Below are positions 2,400 through 63,183 of a DNA stretch of 64,000 nt, in pieces; within the stretch, counting starts at the first letter, position 1, and the number at the start of each line of letters is the position of its first letter. Where the stretch lies: contig NC_090393.1 of assembly GCF_036365525.1 (NCBI RefSeq), positions 54,886,488 to 54,950,487 of the forward strand, written 5' to 3'. The translations under genes and the position numbers were made by a program. The notes beneath the pieces were generated by a model. It searched no databases. It worked only from the letters and a program-made list of their open reading frames with translations, and was not told where the DNA came from. This DNA is from Heterodontus francisci. Lineage: Eukaryota.

Positions 2400-5300
2400 C
2401 AACCCACACCAGGGACCTCTGCTCCTGCACCCACTTTAGAATTGTACCCTTTATATGCCTCCCTTGATGTTGCTACCAAAATGAATCACTTCACACTTCT
2501 CTGCATTAAATTTCATCTGCCACCTGACCACCTAATCCATCAGCCCATCTATGTCCTCTTGAGGTTTATCACTATCCTCCACACAGTTCAAAGTGCTTCC
2601 ATGTTTTGTGTTAGCCGCAAATTTTCAAAATGCGCCCTCTACACCCAAGTCTAGGCCATCAATAAATATCAATAAAATCAGGTACTAACACCACCCCTGG
2701 GGATTTCCTTCTATATACCTTCCTCGAGTCCGAAAAAACAACTGTTCACTCTGACCCTTTTATTCCATGGGCTCTAACTATGCTGACAAGCCTATTATGT
2801 GGCCCTTTAGCAAATGCCTTTTGGAAGTCCACATCAACTGCATTACCCTCATCAACCCTCTGTTACTTCATCAAAAAGCTCAAACAAGTTATCAAAGCAC
2901 AATTTGCACTTAACAGTCCATGCTGGCTTTCTTAATAGATCCACATTTGTCCAGGTGAATGCTAAATTTGTCCAGAATTATCATTTCTAAAAGCTTTCCC
3001 ACCACCGAGGTTAAACTGACTGGCCTGTAGTTGCTGTGCTTCTCATTATATCCCTTTTCAACAAGAGTGTAACACTTGCAATTCTCCAGTCCTCTGACAC
3101 CACCCTCGTATGGCCACTGCCTCAGTAAATTCTACCCTACTTCCCTCAGTATCCAACCATCCTATCTTGTACCTCGTCTTGAGGAATATAAAGCACTTAA
3201 GGAATATAAAGACAGTAGGAAGGAACTTAAGCAAGGAGTTAGGAGGGCTAAAAGGGGTCATGAAAAATCATTGGCAAACAGGATTAAGGAAAATCCCAAG
3301 GCTTTTTATACATATATAAAGAGCAAGAGGGTAACCAGGGAAAGGGTTGGCCCACTCAAGGACAGAGATGGGAATCTATGTGTGGAGCCAGAGGAAATGG
3401 GCGAAGTGCTAAATGAGTCCTTTGCATCAGTATTCACCAAAGAGAAGGACTTGGTGGACTTGAAGGGAGTGCAGATAGTCTCAGTCATCTCATTATCAAA
3501 AAGGAGGCGGTGTTGGGTGTCTTGCAAAGCATTAAGGTAGATAAGTCCCCAGGGCCTGATGGGATCTACCCTAGAATACTGAGGGAGGCAAGGGAAGAAA
3601 TTGCTGGGGCCTTGACAGAAATCTTTCCATCCTCATTGGCTACTGGTGAGGTCCCAGAGGACTGGAGAATAGTCAAAGTTGTTCCTTTTTTTAAGAAGGG
3701 TGGCAAGGATAATCCAGGAAATTATAGGCCGGTGAGCCTTACGTCAGTGGTAGGGAAACTATTAGAGAGGATTATTCGGGACAGGATTTACTCCCATTTG
3801 GAAACAAACGAACTTATTAGCGTGAGACAGCATGATTTTGTGAAGGGGAGGTCGTGTCCTACTAATTTGATTGAGTTTTTTGAGGAAGTGATGAAGATGA
3901 TTGATGAAGGAAGGGCAGTGGATGTTATCTATATGGACTTTAGTAAAGCCTTTGACAAGGTCCCGCATGGCAGACTGGTACAAAAGGTGAAGTCACATAG
4001 GATCAGAGGTGAGCTGGCAAGATGGATACAGAACTAGCTCGGTCACAGAAGACAGAGGGTAGCAGTGGATGGGTGTTTTTCTGAATGGAGGGCTGTGACT
4101 AGTGGTGTTCCACAGGGATCAGTGCTGGGACCTTTGCTGTTTATAGTATATATAAATGATTTGGAGGAAAATGTAGCTGGTCTGATTAGTAAGTTTGCGG
4201 ACGACACAAAGGTTGGTGGAGTTGCGGATAATGATGAGGATTGTCAGAGGATACAGCAGGATATAGATCAGTTGGAGACTTGGGCGGAGAAATGGCAGAT
4301 GGAGTTTAATCCAGACAAATGTGAGGTAATGCATTTTGGAAGGTCTAATGCAGGTGGGAGGTATACAGTAAATGGCAGAACCTTTAGGAGTATTGACAGG
4401 CAGAGAGATCTGGGCGTACAGGGCCACAGGTCACTGAAAGTGCAACGCAGGTGGATAAGGTAGTCAAGAATGCATACGGCATGCTTGCCTTCATCGGTCG
4501 GGGCATAGAGTATAAAAATTGGCAAGTCGTGTTGCAGCTGTACAGAACCTTAGTTAGGCCACACTTAGAATATAGTGTGCAATTCTTGTCGCCACACTAC
4601 CAGAAGGACGTGGAGGCTTTGGAGAGGGTACAGAAGAGGTTTGCCAGGATGTTGGCTGGTCTGGAGGGCATTAGCTATGAGGAGAGGTTGGAAAAACTCG
4701 GATTGTTTTCACTCGAACGACGGAGGTGGAGGGGCGACATGATAGAGGTTTACACAGTTATGAGTGGCATGGACAGAGTGGATAGTCAGAAGCTTTTTCC
4801 CAGGGTGGAAGAGTCAGTTACTAGGGGACATAGGTTTAAGGTGCGAGGGGCAACGTTTAGAGGGGATTTGCGAGGCAAGTTTTTTACACAGAGGGTGGTG
4901 AGTATCTGGAACCTGCTGCCAGGGGAGGTGGTGGAAGCAGATATGATAGCGACGTTTAAGAGACATCTTGACAAATACATGAATAGGAAGGGAATAGAGG
5001 GATATGGGCCCCGGAAGTGCAGAGGGTGTTAGTTTAGGCTGGCATCAAGATCGGCGCAGGCTTGGAGGGCCGAATGGCCTGTTCCTGTGCTGTACTGTTC
5101 TTTGTTCTTTGTTCTTTGGCTTTATCAATTGTGAGCCCATCCAGTGTCTCAATTACCTCATCTTTCACTATGATTTGGGCAGCATCTTCTTCTTGGTAAA
5201 GACAGGTACAAAATACTGATTTTGTACCTCAGTCATGCACCCTGCCTCCGTGCATAAATCCCTTTTAGGTCCCTAAACGGTCCCACTCCTCCATTTACCA

Positions 5301-10930: not shown

Positions 10931-12709
10931 TTATTAGAATTCGGACTGTTAATAATTCGGATTTTATCCTTCCTGTATTGAAGTGGTACATTTAGTATAC
11001 GCTGCAATGCAATATTGTAGGTGACAACAGACAAAGCACTTATCGCAGATAACAATAACCGCCATGAGCGGACCGCAACTTCCTCTTTTAGATCCATTTG
11101 AACGTCAAGATTTTACTGACTTAATTTTTATTTTCGATTAATCAAAGAAATCTAAAAATGTATCAACATCAGGTGAAACGAGCAACTGAACGGCGTGGTT
11201 AATACATGTTGTAATGCAATACAGTATCGTGGTGAGAGCATCCGAGTGAGCGAAAACTCGGCATAGATTTCGTTAAGCAGAATGAGCATAACTTTCAGTA
11301 AAGCTATCGTGTATCGTGTTTGGACAACTGGACTACCGCTATATATGTCATTTCCCCATGTCATTTTGCACTTTGTATTTTGGATCTAAGCCGTTTAACT
11401 CGACAACTACCTGTAGAAATGTGTAACTTTCTCCTGAGAAGTCACTTTAAAGATAGTACATGGCAAAGCACGTTAAAGTCCGTTAAAATACTTTGCGCTC
11501 ATCACGGTAAATTAACGTTAGTGAAGGTGGAGGAGGGGAAATTTCCTTTCGGCACTTAGGAAGAACAGGTTCGTGATTTCGTTACACATATTATACTGGA
11601 GAAATCTGCCACTATATTTCTTGTAATACCCTTCAAGTAATTTTCATACAGGTCGCTGGGATTCATTACATTTCATACAAGTTTTTTTTCTTAGTAGATA
11701 TATTGCGGGATGTCCCCTGGGAAGAATACTGATCTTTCACTACGGGTGTCAACACCAAGGGTTCCCAAATAAGAAATAAATTCGATTCAGAATAAACCTT
11801 CTCTGCGGAGTCTAAAAATGTATATTGCCATTGTTAACGTGTGGGTGAAGGTTCCATCTATTCCACAGTCCTATTGGACTTTTCTGTCCGTTTCAATATG
11901 TAGAAGCAATTCTGGCCCTTCATTCCTACTCCTCGACAGAACACAACAAAAAGCATGCAGTCTTTTCTTTCACTCAGACCTCGTAAGGAGGTAAATAGGA
12001 GGTACAGAACAACCATGTCCTATTTGAAGGGCGGAGTTGGTTCAAGGTGCAGAATGGCGAATGTTCCGACCTTCTTTCTATTTCTCAGTCCTTAGCGAGC
12101 TTTCTCGTCTTAATAGGATAGAACAAACGCTCCTCGCAATTTTCCTGTCTTGTTTCTCCTAAGTCGTGAACACACTCCTCTTACGTTCATGAATAATCGC
12201 TGTGTTAAAATCAAAACCTATCGTACAGTCCCCTTTTCCAGTTCACTTTTTGTATTGATTTTGGAACTGTGAAACTCAATTGTTGTCTCAATCTTTCTTC
12301 TCGCTTATAATCTTCAGGCTATTGAATCCTAGAATGATTGTCACCTAGCAACTAATATAAAAGTAAAATACTGCGCATGCTGAAAGTCTGAAATAAACGC
12401 AGAAAAATGCTGGAAACATTCACTTGTCCATTCCAGCTGCTGAAGATGAAGTCATTGCATCTAAACTTGATGTTATCCTCATGGGGCATCTATGTATTTG
12501 TGGGCATCTCTAACAGAGCGCAGCTGGAACTCTGACCGATTATTCTGTCGCTACAGCAAAAATATCCGGTGGTTCAAGCGATCATTCTGTGGCCTCGACT
12601 GTGAATAAATTAACATGCACAAAACTGGGAATCGAACTTGGCATGTGCTAATTATACTCTCTCTACCTTCCTGTTCTGTTTTCTTATATAAGTTATAGGA
12701 TCAGACTCT

Positions 12710-15021: not shown

Positions 15022-15686
15022 TTTAACTTCGGTCTCCTACCCATATAAGGAAGGTAAATAGAGTTTAGGTACAGATAAACCGTGTCCTATTTGAAGGCCG
15101 GAGTTGGCTCAAGGGGCGGAATGGCCTGCTCCTATTCCTAACTTCTTTCGACTTCTCAGTCCTTAGCGAGCTTTCTCGTCTTAATGGGGATCGGACCATT
15201 GTTCCTCTGAACTTTCCTCTCCTGTTTCTCCTAAGTCCTGAATATAACCCTTCTTTTGCGTCCGTGAATCTCGTTGTGTACAGTCTCCTTTTCCAGTTCA
15301 TTTTTGTACTAATCTTGGAACTGTGGAACTCAATTTTTGCCTCAATCTTTCTTCCCACTTGCAATCTTCAGCCTATTGAACCATAGAACGAGCATCACCT
15401 AATACTGAAAATCTGAAATAACCGCAGAAAATGTTGGAAATCCTCAGCGGGTCTGGCAGTATCTGTGGAGAAACAGAGTTAACGTTTCAGGTCGAGGACT
15501 TTTCGGCAGGACAGTATTTCCCGCATTTTCTGTTTTATTCACCTGACAACTAATTATTAGTTCAACTCTTTTATTTTGCCCCTGTTCTGCCCTGCCGCTA
15601 TCCTATTTCAGTTTTCTGATATCTTGCTTTCCCAGATTGAAATATTGACTGGAATGTGCCTTGCTGAAATGTCAGTCATCATATCA

Positions 15687-15767
15687 CCAATGGTCGGTTG
15701 ACACGTGAATTATATTTGCATAAATAATGATTGTAAAATGACGTTGCAATGCCCGAAACCTCTTAAA
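15687..15767 (+). promoter_or_regulatory. Ig light-chain V promoter (octamer)
   Basis: ATTTGCAT octamer in light-chain orientation at 15714-15721, about 120 bp before the leader ATG; CCAAT 15687-15691; E-box CACGTG 15702-15707; TGACGT(TGCAAT) 15739-15750; TTAAA TATA-like near 15763. Confidence 0.85.
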
Positions 15768-15842
15768 GCGAAGTTCAGAAACAGCCGAGGTAGGTTGCAG
15801 CCAGGAAACATTTTCTTTCTGATCTTCGCCAAGATTTCCACA

Positions 15843-15891
15843 ATGACTGCGTGGGTTGGAGTTCTTGCCGTGCTGGTTCTCTGTCTCCACA
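15843..15891 (+). CDS. Ig light chain leader exon (exon 1)
   Basis: ATG...MTAWVGVLAVLVLCLH + A, followed by canonical donor GTAAGT at 15892; phase-1 intron of 149 nt ending TTTCGCCAG at 16040. Confidence 0.95.
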
Positions 15892-16040
15892 GTAAGTACA
15901 GGGCTGTTCAAACCGTCCATATTTCAGCTTCTGATGTTCCACTGATTTATTGTTTACTTAAGTTGGATGGATCCGAATTGCACTCAGTTCTCACTGTTGC
16001 ATCGAGTGTGATTGAACAAAAAAATTTGTTATTTCGCCAG

Positions 16041-16370
16041 GTTCGAACGCGGATGCTGTCTTGACACAGCCAACATCCATCTCAACTTCCCCGGGGGAAA
16101 CCGTAAAGATCACCTGCACCATGTCCGGAGCCAACATCGGAAGCTACTACACCAGCTGGTACTGGCAGAAGCCCGGCAGTGCCCCTGTGCTTATTTGGAG
16201 TGAGAGAGATGGCAAACCTTCGAATATCCCTGGTCGATTCATGGGTTCTGTGGACGCATCGAGCAACAAGATGCATTTAACCATCACAAAAGTACAATCG
16301 GAGGATGCGGCTGATTATTACTGTTATGCAGCTAGTATCTTTGGTAAAGGAACCAAGCTGAATCTGAGCA
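16041..16370 (+). CDS. Ig light chain pre-joined VJ exon (sigma-cart/type I, NS5-like)
   Basis: (S)[25 protein letters not shown]...[14 protein letters not shown]...[42 protein letters not shown] then A|GTAAGT; both V-set Cys, the conserved Trp and the FGxG motif lie in one frame with no RSS in between. Isotype assigned from recalled similarity to shark type I/NS5 chains ([20 protein letters not shown]). Confidence 0.95.
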
Positions 16371-19300
16371 GTAAGTAATTTAGTTACGCTGTACACCTTG
16401 TGATCTTCAATTATCCGGTTTCGATTCTTCTTTCAAGGTCTGGCGTAAAGGCATTTGTGTCCAAGCATTTTGTTCCATTTGCGAAATGTCCGTCGAATGA
16501 TTTATACGAAACGTAACTTGAAAACTATACTTTTTGGTAGATTGTATTGATTTTCGTCAAGTTAAGCCTAAATAAGTGTATTTACTTAAAATACAATAAC
16601 GCAGCATCAGCCACAAAGAGACGGGTAGCCCGTTTGAATTGACTTACTCCAGTGTCTATCGCCCCACTACTGTCAAGCGTTAGAGAAGGTTTAAGATGTA
16701 AAGGGCAAAATCCCAACTGAATTACTGGGATGAAAATCGAGTCTGTTCTGCAACTGAGGGGCAATTAACTCCACTAGATTACCGCCCAGTCTGTGAAGGG
16801 AAAATTACTGCAACTATCGTCAAAGTCTCTGAATTAAGCGGAGCCACACAGTAATAAGATGTTCTCAGCCCTATATTTCACATGAATCCATTATTTCTGT
16901 AGTAACCAGGCACTTGTAGCAGTTTTAACGAGTATTTATAGTACATATGGATTGTATATACAGTGAAATAACTCACACTGTTTGACACGATGCCGATATT
17001 GTAAAAACTCACAGAACTTTACAATCAAATCCGAAAAATAAAATAGTGCAGATGCTAGAAATATGAAATAAAAGCAGAAAATGCTGGAAACGCTCAGCGG
17101 GTCCGGATTGCTAAGGTTTTATACATAAATATTCGCTAGGTTTCTGATGAAGGATTTTATATATATATGTATGTATATAATTTTTTTTAAACTTAACCTT
17201 TTTCCGTGCCATCAAATCGATATATTTTAGTAAATAATGCTTTGAAATACATTTTCAGTTTTTATGTTGTTTATTCTGCATTTCTGCTAACTAAATGTGC
17301 TCATTCGGAAAACTACCAATACAGATAACTGCAGATGTTCGGTCGGCATTTTAAATCAGTCATTCTGCTGTATTACGGTCCAGTCGTCTAGAACCCAAGG
17401 AATAAAGCAGAGACTCCACCATTTGCAGCGGTCCCACCATTAAATCCACTGGAAATTAGATCCAATCATAGCGTAATAGTGTAAATAGATTGGGGGGCTT
17501 CAGATTCGAACTTAATATATATATATATGAGCTGCTAGCAGCATTTGCTCAATAAACCTACGGGATTCCAGAGATTTCTGTCCCAAACTGCTCTGTGTCA
17601 AGGTTGATAAATCCGTGTTACTGCCTGGTCTTTACACCACTTGTGACACTTTTATAAAGTTCTTTTAGCATTTAAGTTATAATTCAAGGGGGACGCATCA
17701 AGATGACGGTCTCATAGCCAATACACTAGATTTCGAACAAGTTCTTCTTCTTGACAAGCTTATTTTGGTGATGCCACTATTATAACTAACGCAGTACCTG
17801 GTGTCAATTTGCAGTCTGCCTGAAAGACTGCCGCTGCGTAAATTATCCTTCCCAAATATTTATTGGTGCTGATCATGAAGTGAAAGTAATAAATACAGTG
17901 TGAAAGGAACAACTGCTTCCACAGAGCGCGAGACATTCATTATACCGAAGAGTGAATGCCCCAGCTTTTAAGTCCTTTTCATTATAATAAACCTATTTTG
18001 TTATTACTTCCGTGCTTGATCGACAGCTTCTAGGGGATGTAAACATGTTGATACAAGTAGTCCTTCTTTTAGAGCTCATTTTTGTGGCAGTTCATCTTCA
18101 TTCTTTGACATCGGTTATATTTTAGAATTAGAATCCTAGGAAGGTTTATTTTAAATATGACTGAAATTATTATCGTAATTGCTTTGAATGATGTTATTGG
18201 GAAATCATAACTTTAAGAATTATTTTTCCATAGCGATCCTTATTTATTTTTGCTATAAATGACTTTAAATATTGACACTGGAGAACATGTTGATTACCAT
18301 ATTTTGAGCATGAAATCTTATTCCGACAGTGTTTTCAAGTTCTTAACGCCGCTTAGTCACAGTCAGAAGGGACAGAAAATTGTAGAAAGGGCGGTTCAAG
18401 CACAGCGGCCAAGAGCAATAATAATTCCGAACATAAAATCTTGGTTAAAGTTTTCCAACTTGATTGAGGAATATTGTGAAAATTGCTCACAGAGGCGGCC
18501 AATCCAGACGCGTAATGAATTAAACAGGCTGGTATTTTTTTTGTGGGAATAATATTTTTATTCTCATGATCCGAGTATTTGTCCTTTCGAAGAAGCTTCG
18601 CCAAAATGATCATGCGTTAATACTTGTGGAATAAGGAGAAAATCAGGGTTAAATAGATTATAATGAACTGATGTAGCCAAAAAACTAGCATTGATACAAG
18701 CACTATTGGCACAATGGCATCCTTGGGTGATGTAATGTCTATAAATCTACGACTGAACCTAAATTAGATGCATTCTGAGTCTGGTGGTACCTCGCATCAA
18801 ATGATTGTCCTTTGCTAATGTGATTATTAAGTCTGATTAAATTCGAGACCTACATTTTCTTAATCAGCGGTTTTAATCCTCAGTCATAGAGTGATAGATT
18901 CCGTGATTCTTAATACTGAAGCATTGAGTGGCCAGTAAGTCAACCCGATCGTAATCCCGTCAGGTTCCATACTTACTGGGCACAGTTTCCGTGAGAGTTT
19001 ATCCGATCTCATTGGTGGCAGCTCGGCAGTTTCTCCAGGGAAACAGTTTTAAGTTGTCCCCGATATTCAATGAAATTACAAGAGCTCTATAGGAATTCCA
19101 CCAACCGATCAATTAGAATATACACTTGCTAAATTACGTAGGGCGGCTATTCATTACTTTATTGAGCCTCGAAATTATGCCCGTTCCTGAGAGATACCAC
19201 TGTGAAACGGATGCGTCTGCTAACAGTTTTTTGGTATAGTTCAAAGTATGGTTATTTGAATTGGACTATGACATCGTGCAATATTCACAAGTCTTTAAGA

Positions 19301-19599: not shown

Positions 19600-19922
19600 A
19601 TCCGAGAGGCCCCTCGGTGTCCGTTCTTCCGCCTGCATCGGATCAAATTGCAGCAAAGAACACGGCGACCCTGGTGTGTTTGGTGAGCGGTTTTAACCCG
19701 GGAGCTGTGGAGATTGAGTGGACTGTAGATGGCAGTGTGAGAGGGAATGGTGTTGAGACCAGTCGGATCCAGCAGGAGACGGACAACACGTTCAGCGTGA
19801 GCAGTTATCTGACTCTGCCAGCCTCAGAGTGGAACTCACACGAGCTTTACTCCTGTGTGGTTAAACACGAGACTCAGGCAAACCCGCTTAAAACAAGTAT
19901 TGCTAGGTCCAGTTGTATCTGA
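19600..19922 (+). CDS. Ig light chain constant exon
   Basis: Acceptor TTTTCTATTTTCCAG|AT (phase 1, matches the J donor); (N)PRGPSVSVLPPASDQIAAKNTATLVCLVSGFNPG...W...YSCVVKHETQANPLKTSIARSSCI*; C1-set Cys pair and penultimate inter-chain Cys. Confidence 0.97.
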
Positions 19923-19973: not shown

Positions 19974-20134
19974 AATAAAGTCCTTCTTCAGATATTACAT
20001 GTTTGATTTTAAGAGTAACACTTCAAATCATAACAGATGTTCAGTTTGAAAAGATCCCGCTGACTATAACAGCGTGTTCAATCTGAACTGGTCGAAGCTT
20101 CAATGTAACGGTACAAATACTGCAGAGTAATAAA
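19974..20134 (+). terminator. Ig light chain polyadenylation signals
   Basis: AATAAA at 19974-19979 and 20129-20134; the second is also present in the paralogous pseudogene flank near 41564. Confidence 0.65.
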
Positions 20135-25341: not shown

Positions 25342-27131
25342 GATAAAAACAAGAAATGCTGGAACCACTCAGCAGGTCTGGCAGCATCTGTGGAAAGAGA
25401 AACAGAGTTAACGTTTCGGGTCAGTGACCCTTCATCAGAACTGACAAATATTAGAAAAGTCACAGGTTATAAGCAAGTGAGGTGGGGGTGGGGCAAGAGA
25501 TAACAAAGGAGGTCCAGATTGGACCAGGCCACATAGCTGACCAAAAGGTCACGGAGAAAAGGCAAACAATATGTTAATGGTGTGTTGAAAGACAAAGCAT
25601 TAGTACAGATTAGGTGTAAATACACTGAATATTGAACAGCAGCAAGTGCAAACCTGAAAAAAAACAGTGGGTAAGCAAACTGAACAAATTAAGATGAAAT
25701 GAAATAAATGCAAAAAAGATTGTAAAAAATGTAAAAAAAGAATGTTAAAAAAAGGAAGAAAAAATAACTAAAAATGAAAGTAAAATGGGGGGCTGTCATG
25801 ATCTGAAATTATTGAACTCAATGTTTAGTCCGGCAGGCTGTAGTGTGTCTAATCGGTAAATGAAATGCTGTTCCTCGAGCTTGCGTTGATGTTCACTGGA
25901 ACACTGCAGCAATCCCAGGACAGAGATGTGAGCATGAGAGCAGGGGGGAGTGTTGAAATGGCAAGCAACCGGAAGCTCAGGGTCCTGCTTTTGGACTGAG
26001 CGGAGATGTTCCGCAAAGCGGTCACCCAGTCTGTGCTTAGTCTCCCCAATGTAGAGGAGACCACACTGTGAGCAGCGAATACAGTATACTACATTGAAAG
26101 AAGTACAAGTAAATTGCTGCTTCACCTGAAAGGAGTGTTTGGGGCCTGGGATAGTGAGGAGAGAGGAGGTAAATGGGCAGGTATTACACCTCCTGCGATT
26201 GCAGGGGAAGGTGCCCTGGGACGGGGACGAGGTGGTGGGGGTAATGGAGGAGTGGACCAGGGTGTCGCGGAGGGAACAATCCCTTCGGAATGCTGACAGG
26301 GGAAGGGAGGGGAGGATGCAACTGGTAGTGGCATCACGCTGGAGGTGGCGGAAATGGCGGAGTATGATCCTTTGGATATGGAGGCTGGTGGGGTGAAAAG
26401 TGAGGACAAGGGGAACCCTGTCACAGTTCTGGGAGGGTGGGGAAGGGGTGAGGGTAGAGGTGCGGGGAATGGGTTGGACACGGTTGAGGGCCCTGTCAAC
26501 CACAGTGGGGGGAAATCCTCGGTTGAGGTAAAAGGAGGTCATATCAGAAGCACCGCCATGGAAGGTAGCATCATCAGAGCAGATGCGTCGGAGACAGAGA
26601 AACTGGGAGAATGGAATGGAGTCCTTACTGGAGGTAGAGTATGAAGAAGTGTAGTCGAGATAGCTGTGGGAGTCGGTGGGCTTATAATGGATATTAGTAG
26701 ACAACCTATCCCCAGAGATGGAGACAGAGAAGTCGAGGAAGGGAAGGGAAGTGTCAGATTTGGACCATGTAAAGGTGAGAGAAGGGTGGAAATTGGAAGC
26801 AAAGTTGATAAAGTTTTCCAGTTCGGGGCGGGAGCAGGAAACGGCACCGATACAGTCATCAATGTACCTGAAAAAGAGTTGGGGGAGGGGGCCTGAGTAG
26901 GACTGGAACAAAGAATGCTCGACATATCCCACAAAAAGGCAGGCATAACTAGGACCCATGCGGGTACCCATAGCAACACCTTTTACTTGAAGGAAGAGCA
27001 TGGAGTTGAAGGAGCAGTTGTTCAATGTGAGAACAAGTTCAGCCAGGTGGAGGAGGGTGGTGGTGGATGGGGACTTGTTGGGCCTCTGTTCCAGGAAGAA
27101 GCGGGGAGCCCTCAAACCGTCCTGGTGGGGC
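25342..27131 (-). mobile_element. Penelope-like retroelement, 5'-truncated (RT plus GIY-YIG)
   Basis: ORF 25796-27130 with GVAMGTRMGP, RYIDD, FLD, and GIY-YIG VVYCIRC..CGLLYIGET..RFAEH; 3' UTR with intact hammerhead motif. Confidence 0.95.
25406..25442 (-). ncRNA. Minimal type I hammerhead ribozyme motif (best copy)
   Basis: AGUU-CUGAUGA-A-GGGUC ACU GACCC-GAAA-CGUU-AACU: stem I AGUU/AACU, stem II GGGUC/GACCC, palindromic AACGUU in place of stem III. Confidence 0.75.
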
Positions 27132-27560
27132 GTACTCCCATTTGAAAACAAACAAACTTATTAGCGAGAGACAGCATGGTTTTGTAAAGGGGACATCGTG
27201 TCTCACTAATTTGATTGAGCTTTTTGAGGAAGTGACGAAGATGATTATGAAGGAAGGGCAGTGGATGTTATCTATATGGACTTTAGTAAAGCCTTTGACA
27301 AGGTCCCGCATGGCAGACTGGTACAAAAGGTGAAGTCACATGGGATCAGAGGTGAGCTGGCAAGATGGATGCAGAACTGGCTCGGTCATAGAAGACAGAG
27401 GGTATCAGTGGATGGGTGTTTTTCTGAATGGAGGGCTATGACTAGTGGTGTTCCACAGGGATCAGTGCTGGGACCTTTGCTGTTTGTAGCATATATAAAT
27501 GAGTTGGAGGAAAATGTAGCTGATCTGATTAGTAAGTTTCCGGATGACACAAAGGTTGGT
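27132..27560 (+). mobile_element. CR1 RT fragment (same subfamily as 3181-5117)
   Basis: Near-identical to about 3789-4217. Confidence 0.9.
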
Positions 27561-36371: not shown

Positions 36372-36667
36372 ACCTACTAGTTCCCTTGGTGCCTATCCTT
36401 TTGCCTTCATCGGATCAAACCACAGAAAAGAACACGGCGACCTTGCTATGTTTGGTGAGCAGTTCTAACCCGGGAGCTGTGGAGATTGAGTAGACTGTAG
36501 ATGGGAGCGTGAGTGGGAATGGTGTTGAGACCAGTCGGATCCAGCAGGAGACGGACAACATGTTCAAAATGAGCAGTTATCTGACTCTGCCAGCCTCAGA
36601 GTGGAACTCACACGAGCTTTACACCTGTGTGCTTCAAACAAGCATTGCGAGATCCACCTGTATCGGA
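36372..36667 (+). pseudogene. Orphan Ig light chain C pseudo-exon
   Basis: Collinear with 19600-19922; acceptor TTTGTCAG retained; TGG>TAG at 36491-36493; 27-nt deletion removing VKHETQANP; stop TGA>GGA; no V or J recognised upstream. Confidence 0.93.
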
Positions 36668-36708: not shown

Positions 36709-39700
36709 TAAAAACAGAAAGTGCTGGAAATACTCAGCTTGTCAGGCAGCATATGGGGAGAGAGAAGCAGAGTTTCAGGTCTGTGACCTTTCACCAGAAA
36801 CAAGAAATAGGAGCAGAAGTAGACCATATAGCTCATCGAGCTTGCTCTGCCATTCAATACGATCATGGCTGATCTTGGGCTTCAATTCCACTTTCCTGAC
36901 CATATCCCTTGATTCCCTGTGACACCAAAAATCTGTCTATCCGAGCCTTAAATGTATTCAATGACGGAGCATCCACCACCCTCTAGGGTAGAGAATTCCT
37001 AAGATTCACAATCCTTTGAGTATAGTAATTTCTCTTCATCTCAGTCCTGAATGATTGACCCCTTATCCTGAGACTGTGTCCCCATGTTCTAGATTCCCAG
37101 ACCAGTGGAAACAATCTTCTATCCTATCAAGCCCTTTCAGAATCTTGTATATCTCAATTAGATCACCTCTCATTCTTCTATACTCCAGAGAATATAGGCC
37201 CAATTTACTCAGCCTTTCATCATAGGACAACCCTTCATCCCAGAGACCAATTTAGTAAATCTTCGTTGCATTGGCTCCAGTGCAAGCATATCCTTTCTGA
37301 AACGTGGTGACCAAAACTGCACATAGTATTCCAGGTGGGGTCTCACCAAAGCCCTGTACAATTTTAGTAAGACTTTTTTATTCCTGTACACCAATCTCCT
37401 TGCAATAAAGGCCAACATGCCATTTGCCTTCCCAATAGCCTGCTGCGCTGCATGTTAACTTTGTGCATTCCTTGTCCAAGTACTCCCAAGTCTCTCTGAA
37501 TATCAACACTTACCAGTTTCACACCTTTTAAAAATATTCTGTTTTTCTATTTTTACGACCTAAGTGAACAACCTCACACTTCCCTACATTTTGCTCCATT
37601 TGCCAACTTGTTGCCCACTCACTTAACCTGTCTATATATCTTTGCAGCCTCTCGATGTCCTCCCCACAGCTTACCTGTCCACCGAGCTTTGTATCATCAG
37701 CAAACTTAGATATGTTACTCTCTGTCTCTTCATCTAAGTCATTAATATAGAGTGTAAATAGCTGAAGCCCCAGCACTGATCCTTGCGGCACCCCACTATT
37801 CCCTGCCTGCCAACTTGAAAATGCCCCATGTATGCCCAATCTCTGCTTTCTGTCTGTTAACCAATCCTCTATCCACTCTAATATATTACCCCCAACACCA
37901 TGAGCCCTTATCTTGCCTATTAATCTTTTATGTAGCACCTTATCGAATGCCTTTTGAAAATCCAGGTGTACTGCATCTACTGGTTCCACTTTATCTACCC
38001 TACTAGCTAATAAATGTGTCAAACAGGATATCCCTTTAATAAAACCATGCTGACGTGTTCTAGTCATACAATGTTTTTCCAAGTGCAATCTTAAGACTTC
38101 TTTAATAATAGTTTCCAGCATCTTCCCAAGGACTGATGTTAGGCTAACTGGCCTGTAGTTCCTTGTTTTCTCGCTATCTCCTTTCTTGAAAAGCGATGTA
38201 ACATTTGCCAATTTCCAATCTGACAGGACCATTCCTGAATCTAAGGAATTCTGGAAAATCGTGGCTAGTGCATCCACTATCTCTGCAGCTATCTCTTTTA
38301 GAACCCTAGGATGTAGGCCATCTGGTCCCAGGAACTTGTCAGATTTTAGTCCATCAAGTTTCTCCAATACGTAGTCTCGGCTGATATCAATATCCTTAAT
38401 TTCCTCACTCTTTTTAACCTCTAGGTTACTGCCTATTTCTGATATGGCACTTGTGTCTTCTATTGTGAAGACAGATGCAAAATACTTGTTCAATGCCTCT
38501 GCCATTTCCTCATCCCCCGTGATGATTTCTCCTGTCTCTGCCTCTACGGGACCAACATCTACTTTAGCTACTCACTTACATTTTATGTACTTATAAAAGC
38601 TCTTACAATCTGTTTTTATATTGCTGGCTAGTTTACTCATTTTATTTTTCCTTTTTTATCAACTTTTATGTTGGCCTTTTGCTGATTTCTAAAACATACC
38701 CAATCCTCAAACTTGCTACTATTTTTTGCAACATTGTCAGCTTCTTCATTTAATCTAATACTCTCCTTAACTTCCTGAGTGAGTCACGGAAGGTTCTTTT
38801 TTAAGGAGTTTTTGTTTTTGAAGGGAATGTACTTTTGTTGAACCCTTTGAATTATTTCTTTAAATGTTTCCCACTGTCCATTTACTGCCATACCTTCCAG
38901 TCTATTTACCCAATTAGCCATAGCCAGTTCTCCCCTCATACCTTTGTAATTGGCTTTGTTTAAGTTTACGATTCTTGTTTGTGATTAAAATGTGTCACTT
39001 TCAAACTTAACATGAAATTCAATGGTATTATGATTACTATTTCCCAGTGGATCTTTTACTATGACATTGCTTATCATTATAGAATATGAGATCTAAGATA
39101 GCTTTATCCCTAGTCAGTTCTACAACATATTGCTCCAAGAAACTGTCATGAAAGGATTATACAAATTCATCTTCTAGACCACTGTTGCCAATTTGATTTT
39201 CCCAGTCTATATGCAAATTAAAGCCCCCCACAAATAATACATTACCTTTTTTACATGCTCCAATAATTTCCCATTTAATGTTCTGTCCAATAACAAAACT
39301 ACTGTTAGGGGGCCTGTAAACTACCCACACCTGTGTTTTCTGACTCCTGCTGTTCCTAATTTCCACCCAAACTGATTCTAGTTCATGATCTTCTGAGGCC
39401 AGATCCTTCTTATTATTGTCCTTATGGCATCCTTTACTATCAGGGCTGCCCCTCCTCCTTTGCCATTTTGTCTGTCTCTCTAAATATTGTGTACCCTGGA
39501 ATATTCATTTCCCAACCTTGATCTCCTTGTAATCACATCTCGTTAATGGCAATTAGATCTAGATCATTTACCTCTATTCACAGCATTAGTTCATTTATCT
39601 TATTACAGATGCTTCATGCATTCAGATAAAGGAACTTTAATTTTCATTTTTCCCCTCTATTCGCTGCAATGACCTTATTTGCCAATGTACAATTTTTAGT

Positions 39701-47024: not shown

Positions 47025-47160
47025 AAATAAGAGCAAAATACTGCAGATGCTGGAAATCTGAAATAAAAACAAGAAATGCTGGAAATACTCAGCAGGTCTG
47101 GCAGCATCTGTGGAAAGAGAAGCAGAGTTAACGTTTCGGGTCAGTGACCCTTCTTTGAAG
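47025..47160 (-). mobile_element. PLE-derived hammerhead mini-element
   Basis: Near-identical to 25342-25432; ends at a degenerate hammerhead core. Confidence 0.8.
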
Positions 47161-50100
47161 AATGCATTCATGAGGATGAGAGCAATGTGGATGGCATGTT
47201 TATAGATGTGGTCATCACACAGCTTAAGAGTATGCAGGGAGGGAGGGAATGGGTGACCACCATACAGTCAAAAAGAATCAGGCAGGTAGTGCAGGAGACC
47301 CCTGAGTGCATCTCACTCTCCAACAGGTATTCAGTTCTGAATACTGAGGAAAGTGATGCTTCACCTGGGGAGTGCAGCCAGAGCCAAGTTCATGGCACCA
47401 TGGGTAGCTCAGCTGCACAGCTGGGTACAGAGAAGACTGGAAGAGCCATAGTGATAGGTGATTCAATAGTCAGGGGAACAGACAGGCGTTTCTGTGGCCG
47501 CAGATGTGAATCAAGGATCGTGTGTTGCCTCCCTGGTGCTAGGGTCAAAGATGTCACTGAGCAGCTGCAGAGCATCCTGAAGGGGAAGGATGAACAGCCG
47601 GCAGTCGTGGTCTACATCAGAACCAACAACATAGCTAGAAAGAGGGATGTGGTCCTGCAGTCAGAATTTAGGGAGCTAGGTAAGAAATTAGGAAGCAGGA
47701 CCTCAAAAGTAGTCATCTCCAGATTACTCCCAGTGCCACATGCAAGTGAGCATAGAAATCGAAGGATAAGACAGATGAATGCATGGCTGGAAAGATGGTT
47801 CAGGAGGGAGGGCTTTAGATTCCTGGAACATTGGGACCAGCTCTCGGGGAGATGAGACCTGTGCAGGACAGATGGATTACACCTGAACAGAGCCGGGACT
47901 GAATTCCTCGTGGGATGTTTTGCTAGTGCTGTTGGGGAGGGTTTAAACTAATTTGGCAGGGGGATGGGGACCTGAAGATAGGCTCAGGTGGGACAAAGTC
48001 AGAAGTGAAAATGAAAGGCAGTAACTTAATGGATGAGTCTGGAAGGCAGAGGAAACAAAGGTTAGAAAATAAAAAAGAGAGTTTGGCAGTGCTCAAGAGT
48101 ATCTATTTCAATGCAAGGATTATAGCAAATAAAACAGATGAGCTGAGGGCACAGATAGATACGTGGCAATATGATATAATAGCTATTACAGAAACATGGC
48201 TTAAGGAGGGAAAGGAATGGCAGCTCAATGTTCCTGGCTACAGGGTTTACAGACGTGATAGGGAGGGGGATAAGAAAGGAGGAGTGACAATTTTGGTCAA
48301 GGGAACTATTACAGCTGTGAGGAGGAACGATATGTTGGAAGTTTCATCAAATGAGACTATATGGATTGGCTAAGGAACAAAAAAAAGGGTAATCACACTG
48401 CTGGGAGTGTACTATAGACCCCCAAACAGTTAAAGGGAAATAGAAGAGCAGATATGCAGGCAAATCTCTGAGAAGTGTAAGAACAATAAGGAAGTAATAG
48501 CAGGTGATTTTAACTACCCCAATATTACCTGGGATAGTTTTAGTGTGAAAGGAATTGAAGGAGCAGAATTCTTGAGGTGCATTCAGGAGAACTTTTTTCC
48601 CAGGATATGGCAAGTCCAACAAGAGGAGGCGCAGTTTTAGACTTAGTTTTAGGAAATGAAGATGGGCAGGTGGAAGGAGTGGCAATGGTGGCAGTGATCA
48701 TAATTCAGTCAGTTTTAACATACTTATGGAGAAGGACAGAGATAGAACAGGAGTTAGAGTTCTCAAATGGGGCAAGGCCAATTTTACTAAACTGAGGAGT
48801 GATTTCGCAAAAGTGGACTGGAAACAGCTATTTGAAGGTAAATCAGTGTCAAAACAGTGGGATGCATTCAAAGGGGAGATTCAAGGTATTCAGAGTAAGC
48901 ATGTTCCCACAAAGAAAAAGGGTGAGACGGCCAAATCTAGAGCCCCATGGATGTCAAGGAACCTATTGGGTAAGATAAGGCAGAAAAGGAAAGCTGATGT
49001 CCGACACTGAGAACTCAATACTACAGAAAGCTGAGAGGGCTATAGAAAGTGGAGGGATGAAATCATAAAGGAAAGTAGGAAAGCAAAGAGAGGGCATGAA
49101 AGAATATTGGCAAGCAAAATCAAGGTGAACCCAAAGGTGTTTTATCAATAGATTAAGAGTAAGAGGATAACTGAGGAGAAAGTAGGGCCCATAAAAGATG
49201 AAAAAGGTAACCTATGTGTAGGGATAGAAGATGTTGGTGTGGTTCTTAATGAATACTTTGTGTCTGTCTTCACAAAAGAGGGGAACAATACAGATGTTGT
49301 AGTTAAGGAAGAGGAGTGTGACGTATTGGATGTGATAAGCATAGGGAGAGAGGAAGTATTAATGGGATTAGCATCCTTGAAAGTTGATAAATCACCAGGG
49401 CCAGATGAAATGTACTGTAGGCTGCTAAAAGAAGCAAGAGAGCAAATATCAGAAGGTCTGACCATCATTTTCCAGTCATCACTGGACACAGGTGTGGTGC
49501 CGGAGGACTGGAGAACTGCTAATGTTGTACCTCTGTTTAAAAAGGGAGCAAACGATAGTCCGAATAATTACAGACCTCAGTCTAACCTCAGTAGTGGGAA
49601 AATTATTGGAATTTATTCTGAGAGACAGGATAAATGTCACTTAGATAGGCACAAGTTAATCAAGGATAGTCAGCATGGATTTGTTAAGGGAAGATCTTGT
49701 TTGACCAACTTGATCGAATTTTGTGAAGTAACAGGGAAGATAGATGAGGGTAGTGCAGTTGATGTGGTCTACATGGATTTTAGCAAGGCTTTTGACAAGG
49801 TCAAACTGGCAAACTGGTTAAAAAAATAAAATCCTATGGGATCCAAGGAAATGCAGCAATGTGGATACAAAATTGGCTCTGTGGCAGGAAACAAAGGGTA
49901 ATTTTTGACGGCTGTTTTAGCGACTGGAGGGCTGTTTCCAGTGGTGTTCTGCAGGGCTCAGTACTGGATCCCCTTCTTTTATAGTATATATTAACGATTT
50001 GGACATAAATGTAGGGGGCGTGATCAAGAAGTTTGCAGACAATACAAAGATTGGCCTTGTGGTAGATAGCGAGGAGGATAGCTGTAGGCTGCAGGAAGAT

Positions 50101-50950
50101 ATTGATGGTCTGGTCAGATGGGCAGAAAAGTGGCAAATGGAATTCAGTTTGGAGAAGTGTAAGGTGATGCATTTGGGGAGGTCAAACAAGGCAAAGAAAT
50201 ACATGATTAATGGGAAAATACTGAGAAGTGTAGAGGAAGTAAGGGACCTTGGAGTGAATGTCCACAGATCCCTGAAGGTAGCAGGACAGGTCGTTAAAGT
50301 GGTTAAGAAGGCATATGGAATCCTTTCCTTTATTAGCCATGGTATAGAATATAAGAGCAGGGAGGTTATGCTGGAACTGTATAACTCATTGGTTCAGCAA
50401 CAACTTGAGTACTGTGTGCAGTTCTGGTCACCTCATTACAGAAAGGTAGTAATTGCACTGGATAGGGTACAGAGGAGATTTCCGAGGATGTTGCCAGGGC
50501 TGGAAAATTGCATCTATGAGGAAAGATTGGATCGGCTGGGGTTGTTCTCCTTGGAACAGAGAAAGCTGAGGGGAAATCTGATTGAAATGTACAAAGTTTT
50601 GAGGGGCCTGGATAGAATAAAGGTGAAGGGTCTATTCACCTTAGCAGAGAAGTCAGTGGCATGGGGGCATAGATTTAAAGTGATTGGTAGAAAAATTAGA
50701 GGGGAGATAAGGAAAACGTTTTCCCCCAGAGGGTGTTGGGGGTTTGGAACTCACTGCTTGAAAGGGTAGCTGAGGCAGAGACCCTCAACTCATTTAAAAG
50801 GAGTCTAGATATGCACCTCAAATGCCATAATCTGCAGGGCTATGGACTAAATACTGCAAGGTGGGATTTGAATAGGTGGATCGTTTTTCAGCTGGCACAG
50901 ACATGATGGGCCAAGTGGCCTCTTTCTGTGTCTTAAACTTTCTTTGATTT
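47161..50950 (+). mobile_element. Near full-length CR1 LINE
   Basis: ORF1 esterase 47187-47855 (IGDSIV); APE (YFNAR, ITETWL); RT (DFSKAFD, FADN); 3' UTR. Confidence 0.93.
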
Positions 50951-56003: not shown

Positions 56004-56591
56004 TCACATTGCATTCCGAAAATGTTCTTCTTTCGGTGCTCGGATCGCCTCCTTCGAAAAAGCCTCAAATCTTCTCAGAAATATTATTACAAATATCAGA
56101 AGAATTGCCTGAATGACAATGAAGATGAAAAGCCCGATCTGCCACATCACAGCAAGGCTACAGTACCAGTCCTGACAGGTGGAAACAACTTCATCCTCCG
56201 TTAGATATAAGATCAGTCTGCCCTGGAACTCCGCCGGCGAGGAACATTTTATGTTCTTATATTGAGTTCGGTCTTCCTGTTTGAGAAGCCAGGATCTCAG
56301 GTATAAAATGTTACAATCACAGATCCATGGGTTATTGTCCAATGAAACTAATCTCAGGTACTGCAGAGGGTCAAAGAGGCCATTGGGGATGGAAGATAGT
56401 TTGTTGTTGTTCAATTTGATCTCAGTGACGGTGGCCGCAAAGTGCATGGGAATTGTGCTCACATTCAGCTCCCGACTGCTGCAGTCCATTGACGTCCCGG
56501 AACAGAGACACGTTACAGGACACTGGAAGACCGCCACGGGAACCAAAGAGAGAAACACAAGGAAAACATCTTGCTGTCTCGCTATTTGCAT
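56004..56591 (-). CDS. GP1BB: Platelet/thrombocyte glycoprotein Ib beta chain (195 aa)
   Basis: Signal peptide; LRRNT CPVTCLCSGTSMDC; single LRR; LRRCT NPWICDCNILYLRSWL...CSSPAEFQGRLILYLTEDE (compare human LRGRLLPYLAEDE); juxtamembrane Cys; TM helix; short basic tail. ATG at 56591 is preceded by an in-frame TGA, with a splice acceptor TTTTTTCAG at 56618-56626. Confidence 0.92.
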   Translation of the reverse strand: MQIARQQDVFLVFLSLVPVAVFQCPVTCLCSGTSMDCSSRELNVSTIPMHFAATVTEIKLNNNKLSSIPNGLFDPLQYLRLVSLDNNPWICDCNILYLRSWLLKQEDRTQYKNIKCSSPAEFQGRLILYLTEDEVVSTCQDWYCSLAVMWQIGLFIFIVIQAILLIFVIIFLRRFEAFSKEAIRAPKEEHFRNAM

Positions 56592-56764
56592 TGTTTGGAT
56601 CAAAATTCACGGGTTAGCTGAAAAAATAAGGCATTAAAAAGCCACTGATTGTGAGAAGTACAAAAACATGCACAAAAGACAATAAATGGAAAATACAATG
56701 CCTAGTAAAAATATAGCCCATGACACTTGTAAAAATGAAATTTAGAATCTTATCTGAACTTTTT

Positions 56765-59688: not shown

Positions 59689-62600
59689 AGAACAAGAACA
59701 AAGAACAAAGAAAATTACAGCACAGGAACAGGCCCTTCGGCCCTCCAAGCCTGCGCCGATCCAGATCCTCGATCTAAACCTGTCACCTATTTTCTAAGGG
59801 TCTGTATCTCTTTGCTTCCAGCCCATTCATGTATCTGTCTAGATACATCTTAAAAGACGCTATCATGCCCGCGTCTACCACCTCCACTGGCAACGTGTTC
59901 TAGGCACCCACCACCCTCTGCGTAAAGAACTTTCCACGCATATCCCCCCTAAACTTTTCCCCTCTCACTTTGAACTCGTGACCTCTAGTAATTGAATCCC
60001 CCACTCTGGGAAAAAGCTTCTTGCTATCCACCCTGTCTATACCTCTCATGATTTTGTACACCTCAATCAGGTCCCCCCTCAACCTCCGTCTTTCTAATGA
60101 AAATAATCCTAATCTACTCAACCTCTCTTCATAGCTAGCGCCCTCCATACCAGGCAACATCCTGGTGAACCTCCTCTGCACCCTCTCCAAAGCATCTACA
60201 TCCTTTTGGTAATGTGGCGACCAGAACTGCACGCAGTATTCCAAATGTGGCCGAACCAAAGTCTTATACAACTGTAACATGACCTGCCAACTCTTGTACT
60301 CAATACCCCGTCCGATGAAGGAAAGCATGCCGTATGCCTTCTTGACCACTCTATTGACCTGCGTTGCCACCTTCAGGGAACAATGGACCTGAACACCCAA
60401 ATCTCTCTGTACATCAATTTTCCCCAGGACTTTTCCATTTATTGTATAGTTCACTCTTGAATTGGATCTTCCAAAATGCATCACCTCACATTTGCCCGGA
60501 TTGAACTCCATCTGCCATTTCTCTGCCCAACTCTCCAATCTATCTCTATTCTGCTGTATTCTCTGACAGTCCCCTTCACTATCTGCTACTCCACCAATCT
60601 TAGTGTCGTCTGCAAACTTGCTAATCAGACCACCTATACTTTCCTCCAAATCATTTATGTATATCACAAACAACAGTGGTCCCAGCACGGATCCCTGTGG
60701 AACACCACTGGTCACACGTCTCCATTTTGAGAAACTCCCTTCCACTGCTACTCTCTGTCTCCTGTTGCCCAGCCAGTTCTTTATCCATCTAGCTAGTACA
60801 CCCTGGATCCCATGCGACTTCATTTTCTCCATCTACCTACCATGGGGAACCTTATCAAACGCCTTACTGAAGTCCATGTATATGACATCTACAGCCCTTC
60901 CCTCATCAATCAACTTTGTCACTTCCTCAAAGAATTCTATTAAGTTGCTAAGACATGACCTTCCCTGCACAAACCATGTTGCCTATCACTGATAAGCCCA
61001 TTTTCTTCCAAATGGGAATAGATCCTATCCCTCAGTATCTTCTCCAGCAGCTTCCCTACCACTGACGTCAGGCTCACCGGTCTATAATTACCTGGATTAT
61101 CCCTGCTACCCTTCTTAAACAAGGGCACAACATTAGCAATTCTCCAGTCCTCCGGGACCTCACCCGTGTTTAAGGATGCTGCAAAGATATCTGTTAAGGC
61201 CCCAGCTATTTCCTCTCTCGCTTCCCTCAGTAACCTGGGATAGATCCCATCCGGACCTGGGGACTTGTCCACCTTAATGCCTTTTAGAATACCCAACACT
61301 TCCTCCCTCCTTATGCCGACTTGACCTGGAGTAATCAAACATCTATCCCTAACCTCAACATCCGTCATGTCCCTCTCCTCGGTGAATACCGATGCAAAGT
61401 ACTCGTTTAGAATCTCACCCATTTTCTCTGACTCCACGCATAATTTTCCTCCTTTGTCCTTGAGTGGGCCAATCCTTTCTCTAGTTACCCTCTTGCTCCT
61501 TATATATGAATAAAAGGCTTTGGGATTTTCCTTAACCCTGTTTGCTAAAGATATTTCATGACCCCTTTTAGCCCTCTTAATTCCTCGTTTCAGATTGGTC
61601 TTACACTCCCGATATTCTTCCAAAGCTTCGTCTTTCTTCAGCCGCCTAGACCTTATGTATGCTTCCTTTTTCCTCTCAGCTAGTTTCACAATTTCACCTG
61701 TCATCCATGGTTCCCTAATCTTGCCATTTCTATCCTTCATTTTCACAGGAACATGTCTCTCCTGCACGCTAACCAACCTCTCTTTAAAAGCCTCCCACAT
61801 ATCAAATGTGGATTTATCTTCAAACAGCTGCTCCCAATCTACATTCCCCAGCTCCTGCCGAATTTTGGTATAGTTGGCCTTCCCCCAATTTAGCACTCTT
61901 CCTTTAGGACCACTCTCGTCTTTGTCCATGAGTATTCTAAAACTTACGGAATTGTGATCACTATTCCCAAAGTAGTCCCCTACTGAAACATCAACCACTT
62001 GGCCGGGCTCATTCCCCAACACCAGGTCCAGTATGGCCCCTTCCCGAGTTGAACTATTTACATACTGCTCTAGAAAACCCTCCTGGATGCTCGTTACAAA
62101 TTCTGCTCCATCTTGTCCTCTAACACTACGTGAATCCCAGTCAATGTTGGGAAAATTAAAATCTCCTATCACCACCACCCTGTTGCTCCTATATCTTTCC
62201 ATAATCTGTTTACATATTTGTACCTCTATCTTACGCTCACTGTTGAGACGCCTGTAGTACAGCCCCAACATTGCTACCGCACCCTTCCTATTTCTGAGTT
62301 CTGCCCATATTGCCTCACTGCTCGAGTCCTCCATAGTGCCCTCCTTCAGCACAGCTGTGATATCCTCTTTGACCAGTAATGCAACTCCTTCACCCCTTTT
62401 ACCTCCCTCTCTATCCCACCTGAAGCATCGATATCCTGGGATATTTAGTTGCCAACCGTGCCCTTCCTTCAACCAAGTCTCAGTAATAGCAATAACATCA
62501 TACTCCCAGGTACTAATCCAAGCCCTAAGTTCATCTGCCTTACCTACTACACTTCTTGCATTAAAACAAATGCACCTCAGACCACCAGTCCCTTTGCGTT

Positions 62601-63183
62601 CATCATCTGCTCCCTGCCTACTCTTCCCCTTAGTCATGCTGACTTCATTATCTAGCTCCTTACAGGCTTTAGTTACTGCATCCTTACTGTCCACTGTCCT
62701 CTTCATTTGGTTCCCATCCCCCTGCCACATTAGTTTAAACCCTCCCCAACAGCGTTAGCAAAAGCACCCCCAAGGACATTGGTTCCAGTCCAGCCCAGGT
62801 GTAGACCGTCCAATTTGTAATAGTCCCACCTCCCCCAGAACCGGTCCCAATGTCCCAAAAATCTGAACCCCTCCCTCCTGCACCATCTCTCAAGCCACGC
62901 ATTCATCCTGACTATTTTTTCATTTCTACTCTGACTAGCACGTGGCACTGGTCGCAATCCTGAGATTACTACCTCTGAGGTCCTACTTTTTAACTTGGCT
63001 CCTAACTCCCTAAATTCTGCTTGTAGGACCTCATCCCGTTTTTTACCTATATCATTGGTGCCTATGTGCACAACGACAACTGGCTGTTCACCCTCCCCCT
63101 TCAGAATGTTCTGCAGCCGATCTGAGACATCCCTGACCCGTGCACCTGGGAGGCAACATACCATTCGGGAGTCTCGTTTTCGA
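59689..63183 (-). mobile_element. Young CR1 LINE, 5'-truncated within ORF1
   Basis: ORF1 esterase C-terminal half intact (to 62730); ORF2 APE-RT 62730-59900 with one frameshift (near 60972) and one premature TAG (59900); (TTCTTTG)n-type tail. Confidence 0.96.

Follow-up and report, generated by a model that had tools for sequence, protein, structure and literature searches.

It is probable, on the evidence taken as a whole, that the gene described here is an inherited, germline-joined lambda light chain gene of the horn shark (Heterodontus francisci), and that its CDR3 of only five amino acids stems from one short-loop ancestor that predates the split between sharks and rays. The germline-joined state on its own is textbook shark lambda biology and is not new; the novelty lies in a five-residue lambda loop that recurs across genera and in a split lambda-type neighbour on the same contig, and we are less sure that the neighbour has gone unreported. 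No report of a five-residue loop as a lambda lineage of sharks and rays, or of a split shark lambda gene, was found in the literature; older primary papers might describe either one, and the five-residue chain of the sandbar shark has long been present in databases.

The gene lies in a 64-kb stretch of horn shark DNA, referred to here as the window, and its parts are collected in Table 1 together with the split neighbour. Spliced leader, VJ and C exons form a 702-nt frame of 233 amino acids across GT..AG introns, and the product matches XP_067911425.1 (Heterodontus francisci) in every residue. The initial annotation of this DNA had described V running in frame into J with no heptamer or nonamer, an unusually short CDR3, and an intact promoter, leader, splice sites, C exon and polyadenylation signals. 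All of this was borne out: the junction reads TGT TAT GCA GCT AGT ATC TTT GGT (C-YAASI-FG, with the Cys codon at 16322-16324 and Phe at 16340), the octamer and both AATAAA signals are in place, and a scan of the 64-kb window found no RSS at the V end or the J start. The scan returned two weak matches, at 12271 and 15325, both on the minus strand and with an 11-base spacer. The penultimate Cys of the C exon is the residue expected, from the sequence, to form the heavy-light disulphide. The J end (16361-16369) encodes N-L-S, an N-glycosylation sequon, where eight paralogues have NLD, NMD or NLG.

Table 1. Features of the joined lambda gene (window positions) and of the split lambda-type cluster
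Feature	Position	Strand	Evidence and remarks
Ig promoter octamer, ATTTGCAT	15714..15721	+	Sequence; 129 bases 5' of ATG
Leader exon, 49 nt, MTAWVGVLAVLVLCLH	15843..15891	+	Splice joint 15891>16041 in X5, X6, X7
Single VJ exon, in-frame V-J join, without RSS	16041..16370	+	DNA contig X1 identical throughout
CDR3, 5 codons, YAASI	16325..16339	+	Sequence; predicted two strand ends and 2-residue turn (AlphaFold)
Lambda C exon including stop	19600..19922	+	86% identity to sandbar shark lambda C; joint 16370>19600 in X5, X6, X7
Polyadenylation signals, two AATAAA, at 19974 and 20129	19974..20134	+	Sequence
Split leader-V-RSS23 / RSS12-J-C cluster	L040:929-4623 = G000:C23:55946928-55950622	minus	Sequence

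A contig of the DNA run X1 covers 15600-17080 with 0 differences, and X1 is possibly the source of the assembly itself. Both splice joints are present in all three of the RNA-like runs X5, X6 and X7, and the spliced 233-aa transcript that the initial annotation had proposed to look for was thus traced in one animal; record 25 of X7 shows 0 differences over the whole VJ exon and the first part of C. X1, X5, X6 and X7 are one sample, with all reads from a single animal. No run is on record as RNA, and X5-X8 are treated as such, as a guess, because the splice joints are present there and absent in X1. An Ig gene that is intact and matched by spliced contigs is no product of chance: the gene yields an open 233-aa frame without any rearrangement, and spliced transcripts of it exist.

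By sequence identity the gene is a horn shark lambda gene (type II/NS3) and not a type I/sigma-cart gene, since it matches the sandbar shark 'Ig lambda chain' AAC59643.1 at 86% identity in C and 77% in V, whereas its C is 43-49% identical to those of other light-chain families of the same genome. The type I/sigma-cart frame of the initial annotation was therefore rejected; the split V12/J23 family on contig C46, presumably type I, matches this gene at 43% in C and 41-44% in V, and in the V tree a branch with 99/98 support sets it apart. The automatic NCBI label 'lambda-1 light chain-like' was set aside for isotyping because UrIg2 and sigma-prime carry the same label, and sequence searches of the PDB matched many antibody chains without distinguishing the isotype. 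Human GP1BB and IGL both lie in band 22q11.2. About 36 kb downstream of the horn shark gene, an open reading frame on the minus strand (56004-56606) is GP1BB-like, its best solved-structure match being platelet glycoprotein Ib beta (E 1.2e-33), and this single neighbour is a possible candidate marker of synteny with the tetrapod lambda locus. The window also contains fragments of LINE-type and Penelope-like retroelements, by translations judged by eye, at 3417-5032, 25796-27157, 37528-38571, 47148-50769 and 59900-62754. Passages of two reviews state that lambda is joined in every cartilaginous fish species studied (PMC5192425, PMC4279169), and a 2025 paper, in the part available, again takes shark lambda as entirely joined and ties it to an ancient paralogous region (PMC12227049); the accessible portions of the supplements of PMC3964593 and PMC12227049 gave no account of lambda organisation.

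All nine V matches to the DNA query, this gene included, are joined, over ~270 kb of contig C23, and the inherited joined state claimed in the initial annotation is judged very likely. Their CDR3s have five residues (this gene), nine (one) or 11 (seven). No unjoined version of this V turned up among the genome's 9 DNA and 63 protein matches; the nearest split V, that of cluster L040, is only 47% identical and is not the direct parent, and the split V and J ends of L040 fail to match the YAASI junction. Given this lack of a split parent, trimmed, N and P bases cannot be counted, and the proposed alignment to unrearranged paralogous V and J segments had no counterpart to work on. The reconstruction of the junction was dropped for the same reason, and the earlier view of a heavily trimmed join with little N addition and an AG microhomology found no support. 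A loop length common to rays, together with the absence of a close split V, implies that any joining signature is very old and has been overwritten; a deletion of 4-6 codons after joining is indistinguishable from trimming. The C exons of the locus are homogenised, at 90-96% identity.

Other lambda-like elements surround this family. L041 (G000:C23:55856062-55856391, minus) and L042 (G000:C23:55902298-55902624, plus) are joined VJ genes with the CDR3s AVWVGSITEYI and GWWSSDVLH, with a distinct C that is 57-59% identical to the window C, and they make up a second, unclassified lambda-like lineage. L043 (G000:C23:54572179-54572493, minus) is a divergent C exon (57%) with no V within the 10 kb examined. 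The window itself holds an orphan broken lambda C exon at 36383-36664 (plus), with an in-frame TAG, a 9-codon deletion and 89% DNA identity, for which no V or J was found in the window. L019, L022/L044 and L045 are further broken lambda C exons; a TAG interrupts the C of the L009 cluster, the C at G000:C23:54.855 Mb is frameshifted, and that at 55.912 Mb is broken.

Five-residue loops are not confined to the horn shark. The homologue set comprised 137 proteins, including the best 120 of 130 from one search, with the CDR3 parsed by pattern in 128 and by alignment in nine; among those listed, 14 have a CDR3 of five residues (13 by pattern, one by alignment), two have six, and none has seven or ten. 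With cluster members added to the homologues listed, five-residue lambda chains occur in at least 12 of the 21 genera sampled, namely Heterodontus, Cetorhinus, Carcharodon, Carcharhinus, Pristiophorus and Heptranchias, together with Narcine, Pristis, Mobula, Hypanus, Hemitrygon and the chimaera Callorhinchus. The loop was not seen in Chiloscyllium, Hemiscyllium, Scyliorhinus, Mustelus, Squalus, Rhinoraja, Leucoraja, Amblyraja (six residues) or Hydrolagus, and since 90% clustering hides members, these nine of 21 genera without a match are not proven absences. Loops of nine and 11 residues are likewise common to several species, which makes the five-residue loop one among a small number of old classes. 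The homologues are mostly gene models, and because a model can bridge a split gene, as XP_067911708.1 does across L040, the joined state in other species is a presumption.

The orthologous loops vary (YAASI, FTAKT, FIPNI, FAGRT, FAART, YAART and YSART), and the sandbar shark, Pristis, Mobula and Hemitrygon all share YAART. Trees were built on leader and V with the CDR3 omitted. In a 43-row tree of chosen rows (one short-loop row per gene plus long-loop paralogues of the same genera), nine of the 13 short-loop rows fall into one group at 93/90, a bootstrap of 93 being under 95; the group contains Heterodontus, Cetorhinus, Carcharodon and Pristiophorus as well as a ray clade at 100/98. An earlier 57-row tree under a mixture model placed five of nine short rows together (88/89), and the leader type of the horn shark gene recurs in the Cetorhinus, Carcharodon and Pristiophorus orthologues that have the short loop. 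An AU test ruled out a single clade for the whole set of 13 short-loop V regions (p 1.9e-5), which means that conversion or several origins are needed for the sandbar shark, Heptranchias, one Pristis and the Callorhinchus genes, and a grouping of the horn shark V with two paralogues from the same genome was not rejected (p 0.061). In Pristis two different frameworks bear the short loop, and in Scyliorhinus a related framework has a 9-aa loop, a mixture compatible with gene conversion and with several origins alike. Among the nine core sequences, identity is 0.49 in the CDR3, 0.67-0.75 in the frameworks and 0.73 in C; in these alignments loop length is conserved and loop sequence is not. The idea of a conserved loop sequence marking one fixed ligand is unsupported at such a low CDR3 identity. 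Batoids diverged at least 200 Myr ago, according to a section of PMC2193156, and the five-residue loop is likely to be more than 200 million years old, as a single short-loop lineage that arose before sharks and rays parted.

In lambda-type loci the RSS order is V23/J12. The split cluster L040, ~1 Mb from the joined gene, shows this order: its V ends ALWNNRH and is followed by the heptamer CACAGCG, 23 bases and ACAAAACTA (a nonamer with 6/9 matches by hand count), and ahead of its J stand AGTTTTTGT, 12 bases and CACCGTG. In C46, C34 and C8, the further split light-chain families that were checked, the V has a 12-base spacer, the reverse of L040, and the kappa order is given as 12/23 in parts of PMC5985310 and PMC5241823. 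Contigs C46, C8, C34 and C36 (L046-L053, L093) hold large arrays of other Ig/TCR-like clusters with inferred isotypes. L040 is single-copy among 23 matches, and its C is 90% identical to the window C. The DNA run X1 contains it unjoined in one contig with 0 differences. In X5 one contig (depth 151) carries the joint 3813>4119, which skips 305 bases in frame to give ALWNNRH-FV-FG and falls exactly at the signal end of V and 2 nt inside J; an X6 contig is spliced yet unjoined, and in X8 no L040 V-J joint occurs among the rows listed. The NCBI model XP_067911708.1 reads L040 as continuous with the same junction as X5, probably from the same data.

On the strength of this one junction in one animal, L040 probably rearranges, and if this holds, some shark lambda is still split and derivation of the joined family by RAG becomes the simpler reading. 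V regions related to that of L040 are present in many sharks and rays among the homologues listed. A search returning 150 rows at 50% clustering was dominated by multi-domain models; of ten high-identity relatives looked up, the six with organism names (seven with Varanus, whose lambda label is automatic) are lizard or turtle V regions. The V tree leaves the position of L040 relative to the joined family unresolved and the C tree is poorly resolved, and because the C exons are homogenised, C identity alone does not prove that the V of L040 is ancestral lambda.

The CDR3 is predicted to be a bare hairpin with a two-residue turn. The AlphaFold model (mean pLDDT 84, from an alignment of 13 sequences) has strand to residue 113, coil at 114-115 and strand at 116-117. 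Several RNA-like contigs differ from the DNA run. A T>A change at 16336, which replaces Ser by Arg in the CDR3 and converts YAASI to YAARI, matching the Arg of most orthologues, occurs in five X5 and two X6 contigs, and a G>C change at 16250, a base found in none of the paralogues compared, in five X5 contigs; both are absent from X1 and X7. In all, 25 contig differences were listed, and of the 23 besides these two many are probably paralogue-derived. The two changes suggest that somatic mutation acts on this gene; they may come from single expanded clones, that at 16336 perhaps from one clone at a hotspot. The fixed specificity that the initial annotation had proposed is weakened because orthologous loops differ and RNA-like contigs carry changes, including one in the CDR3, that the DNA run lacks.

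A history consistent with these observations can be proposed. RAG would have joined V to J a single time, in a germ cell of the distant past, starting from a V-RSS23/RSS12-J cluster that resembled L040; the joined gene would later have been copied and its frameworks shuffled with those of neighbours, the loop length being retained as the loop sequence drifted. In B cells the chain would offer a minimal L3 hairpin, the heavy chain and CDR1/2 would make most of the contacts with antigen, and diversity would come from somatic hypermutation instead of the junction.

Repeated in-frame deletion in joined lambda genes with 9-11 aa loops, converging on five as the shortest loop that folds and carrying no special function, is an unlikely explanation even though several of the findings agree with it. 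The 13 short rows are not one clade, the AU test tolerates this V with its own paralogues, CDR3 identity is low, the modelled loop is a bare two-residue turn, and L004 (9 aa) and L005 (11 aa) differ by 6 nt within a GCA-GCT-GCA repeat, which implies that loops can shrink after joining. However, nine of the 13 short rows group by leader and framework in a way that tracks the species tree, YAART is the same in four genera, and stepwise loss should have left some 7-aa loops among the 137 proteins. Nor is the joined lambda family at all likely to be the relic of a primordial unsplit VJ exon that RAG never joined, with L040 split later or provided with a lambda C by exon exchange. The treatment of lambda as entirely joined and linked to an ancient paralogous region (PMC12227049, in part) would agree with such a relic, as would the homogenised C exons and a V tree that fails to place L040 with the joined family; against it stand the V23/J12 order of L040, opposite to that of three other split families, the relatives of its V in many sharks and rays with lizard and turtle V regions as the named high-identity matches, and the ordinary J ends and split-like CDR3s of the joined genes.

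A recent origin by germ-cell RAG in the horn shark itself, with a heavily trimmed, microhomology-guided join like those of R4 and R7 in nurse shark NS4, is highly improbable. Such events are documented (sections of PMC2193156) and the genome has an apparently rearranging lambda-type cluster in L040, but every close V match is joined, the split V is only 47% identical, and the loop length recurs in 11 other genera. That the join in the assembly is somatic, picked up from a clone of lymphocytes, is scarcely credible: the sole DNA run examined, X1, may be the assembly source, yet the whole family is joined with no unjoined version among the DNA and protein matches, models from other species have the same loop length, and L040, which is genuinely split, was assembled unjoined from the same DNA. 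Descent of an old joined gene from one short-loop ancestor is the reading that we prefer.

The hard-wired five-residue L3, apparently kept in sharks and rays, defines an antibody class that is testable for pairing, ligand and ontogeny, and is of a kind that is rare in mammals and that vaccine designers try to elicit. Reports of lambda as entirely joined (PMC12227049, 2025, in part) have made it hard to test whether the joined genes are primordial or products of RAG; a split, apparently rearranging lambda-C cluster with V23/J12 order supplies the point of reference that was lacking, and existing shark genomes can now be used to test the origin. Chimaeras diverged over 400 Myr ago. A bolder interpretation, to which we give somewhat less than an even chance, is that L040, as a cluster that still rearranges, shows lambda to have been ancestrally split for RAG, that the joined genes are fossils of ancient germline recombination and do not go back to an unsplit ancestor, and that the five-residue chain has been kept for at least 200 Myr as a dedicated structural class, which would leave antigen contact to the heavy chain or would fit bulky, glycosylated antigens; its age would exceed 400 Myr if the chimaera gene with the loop KASDT is homologous.

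One of the closest known systems is the lambda (type II, NS3) of other cartilaginous fish, which shares the V-J-C minicluster and the germline-joined VJ, and the sandbar shark chain AAC59643.1 also has a five-residue CDR3 of its own (YAART). The difference is that the horn shark has a split, apparently rearranging sister cluster, where passages of PMC5192425, PMC4279169 and PMC12227049 describe all lambda as joined. Sigma-2/sigma-cart (type I, NS5) likewise forms light-chain miniclusters, of which some species have joined ones, and differs in the low C and V identities to the presumably type I C46 family given above. Recent in-frame germline VJ joins are documented in nurse shark kappa/NS4 (R4, R7 and R18; PMC2193156, in part), and like the horn shark gene they have an in-frame VJ and an intact octamer, the join being credited to germ-cell RAG. 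As that source describes them in part, however, the NS4 R-genes have split relatives up to 99% identical, readable P and trim signatures and expression mainly in pups, whereas the horn shark gene has an ancient junction and abundant contigs in RNA-like runs, and its genome lacks a near-identical split parent, the close matches being joined without exception. The length of the loop invites an analogy with human VRC01-class antibodies, which have the same minimal five-residue L3; such CDRL3s are rare in mammals, at 0.1% of mouse light chains in excerpts of PMC6936959. In the VRC01 class the L3 arises somatically and rarely, and it carries a hydrophobic residue at 91 and Glu96 (PMC6936959, in part), whereas in the horn shark chain the loop is hard-wired and has no Glu, nor does any five-residue loop among the homologues listed. 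By this analogy (PMC6936959, in part), a minimal L3 would move binding toward the heavy chain and CDR1/2 in the shark chain as it does in the VRC01 class.
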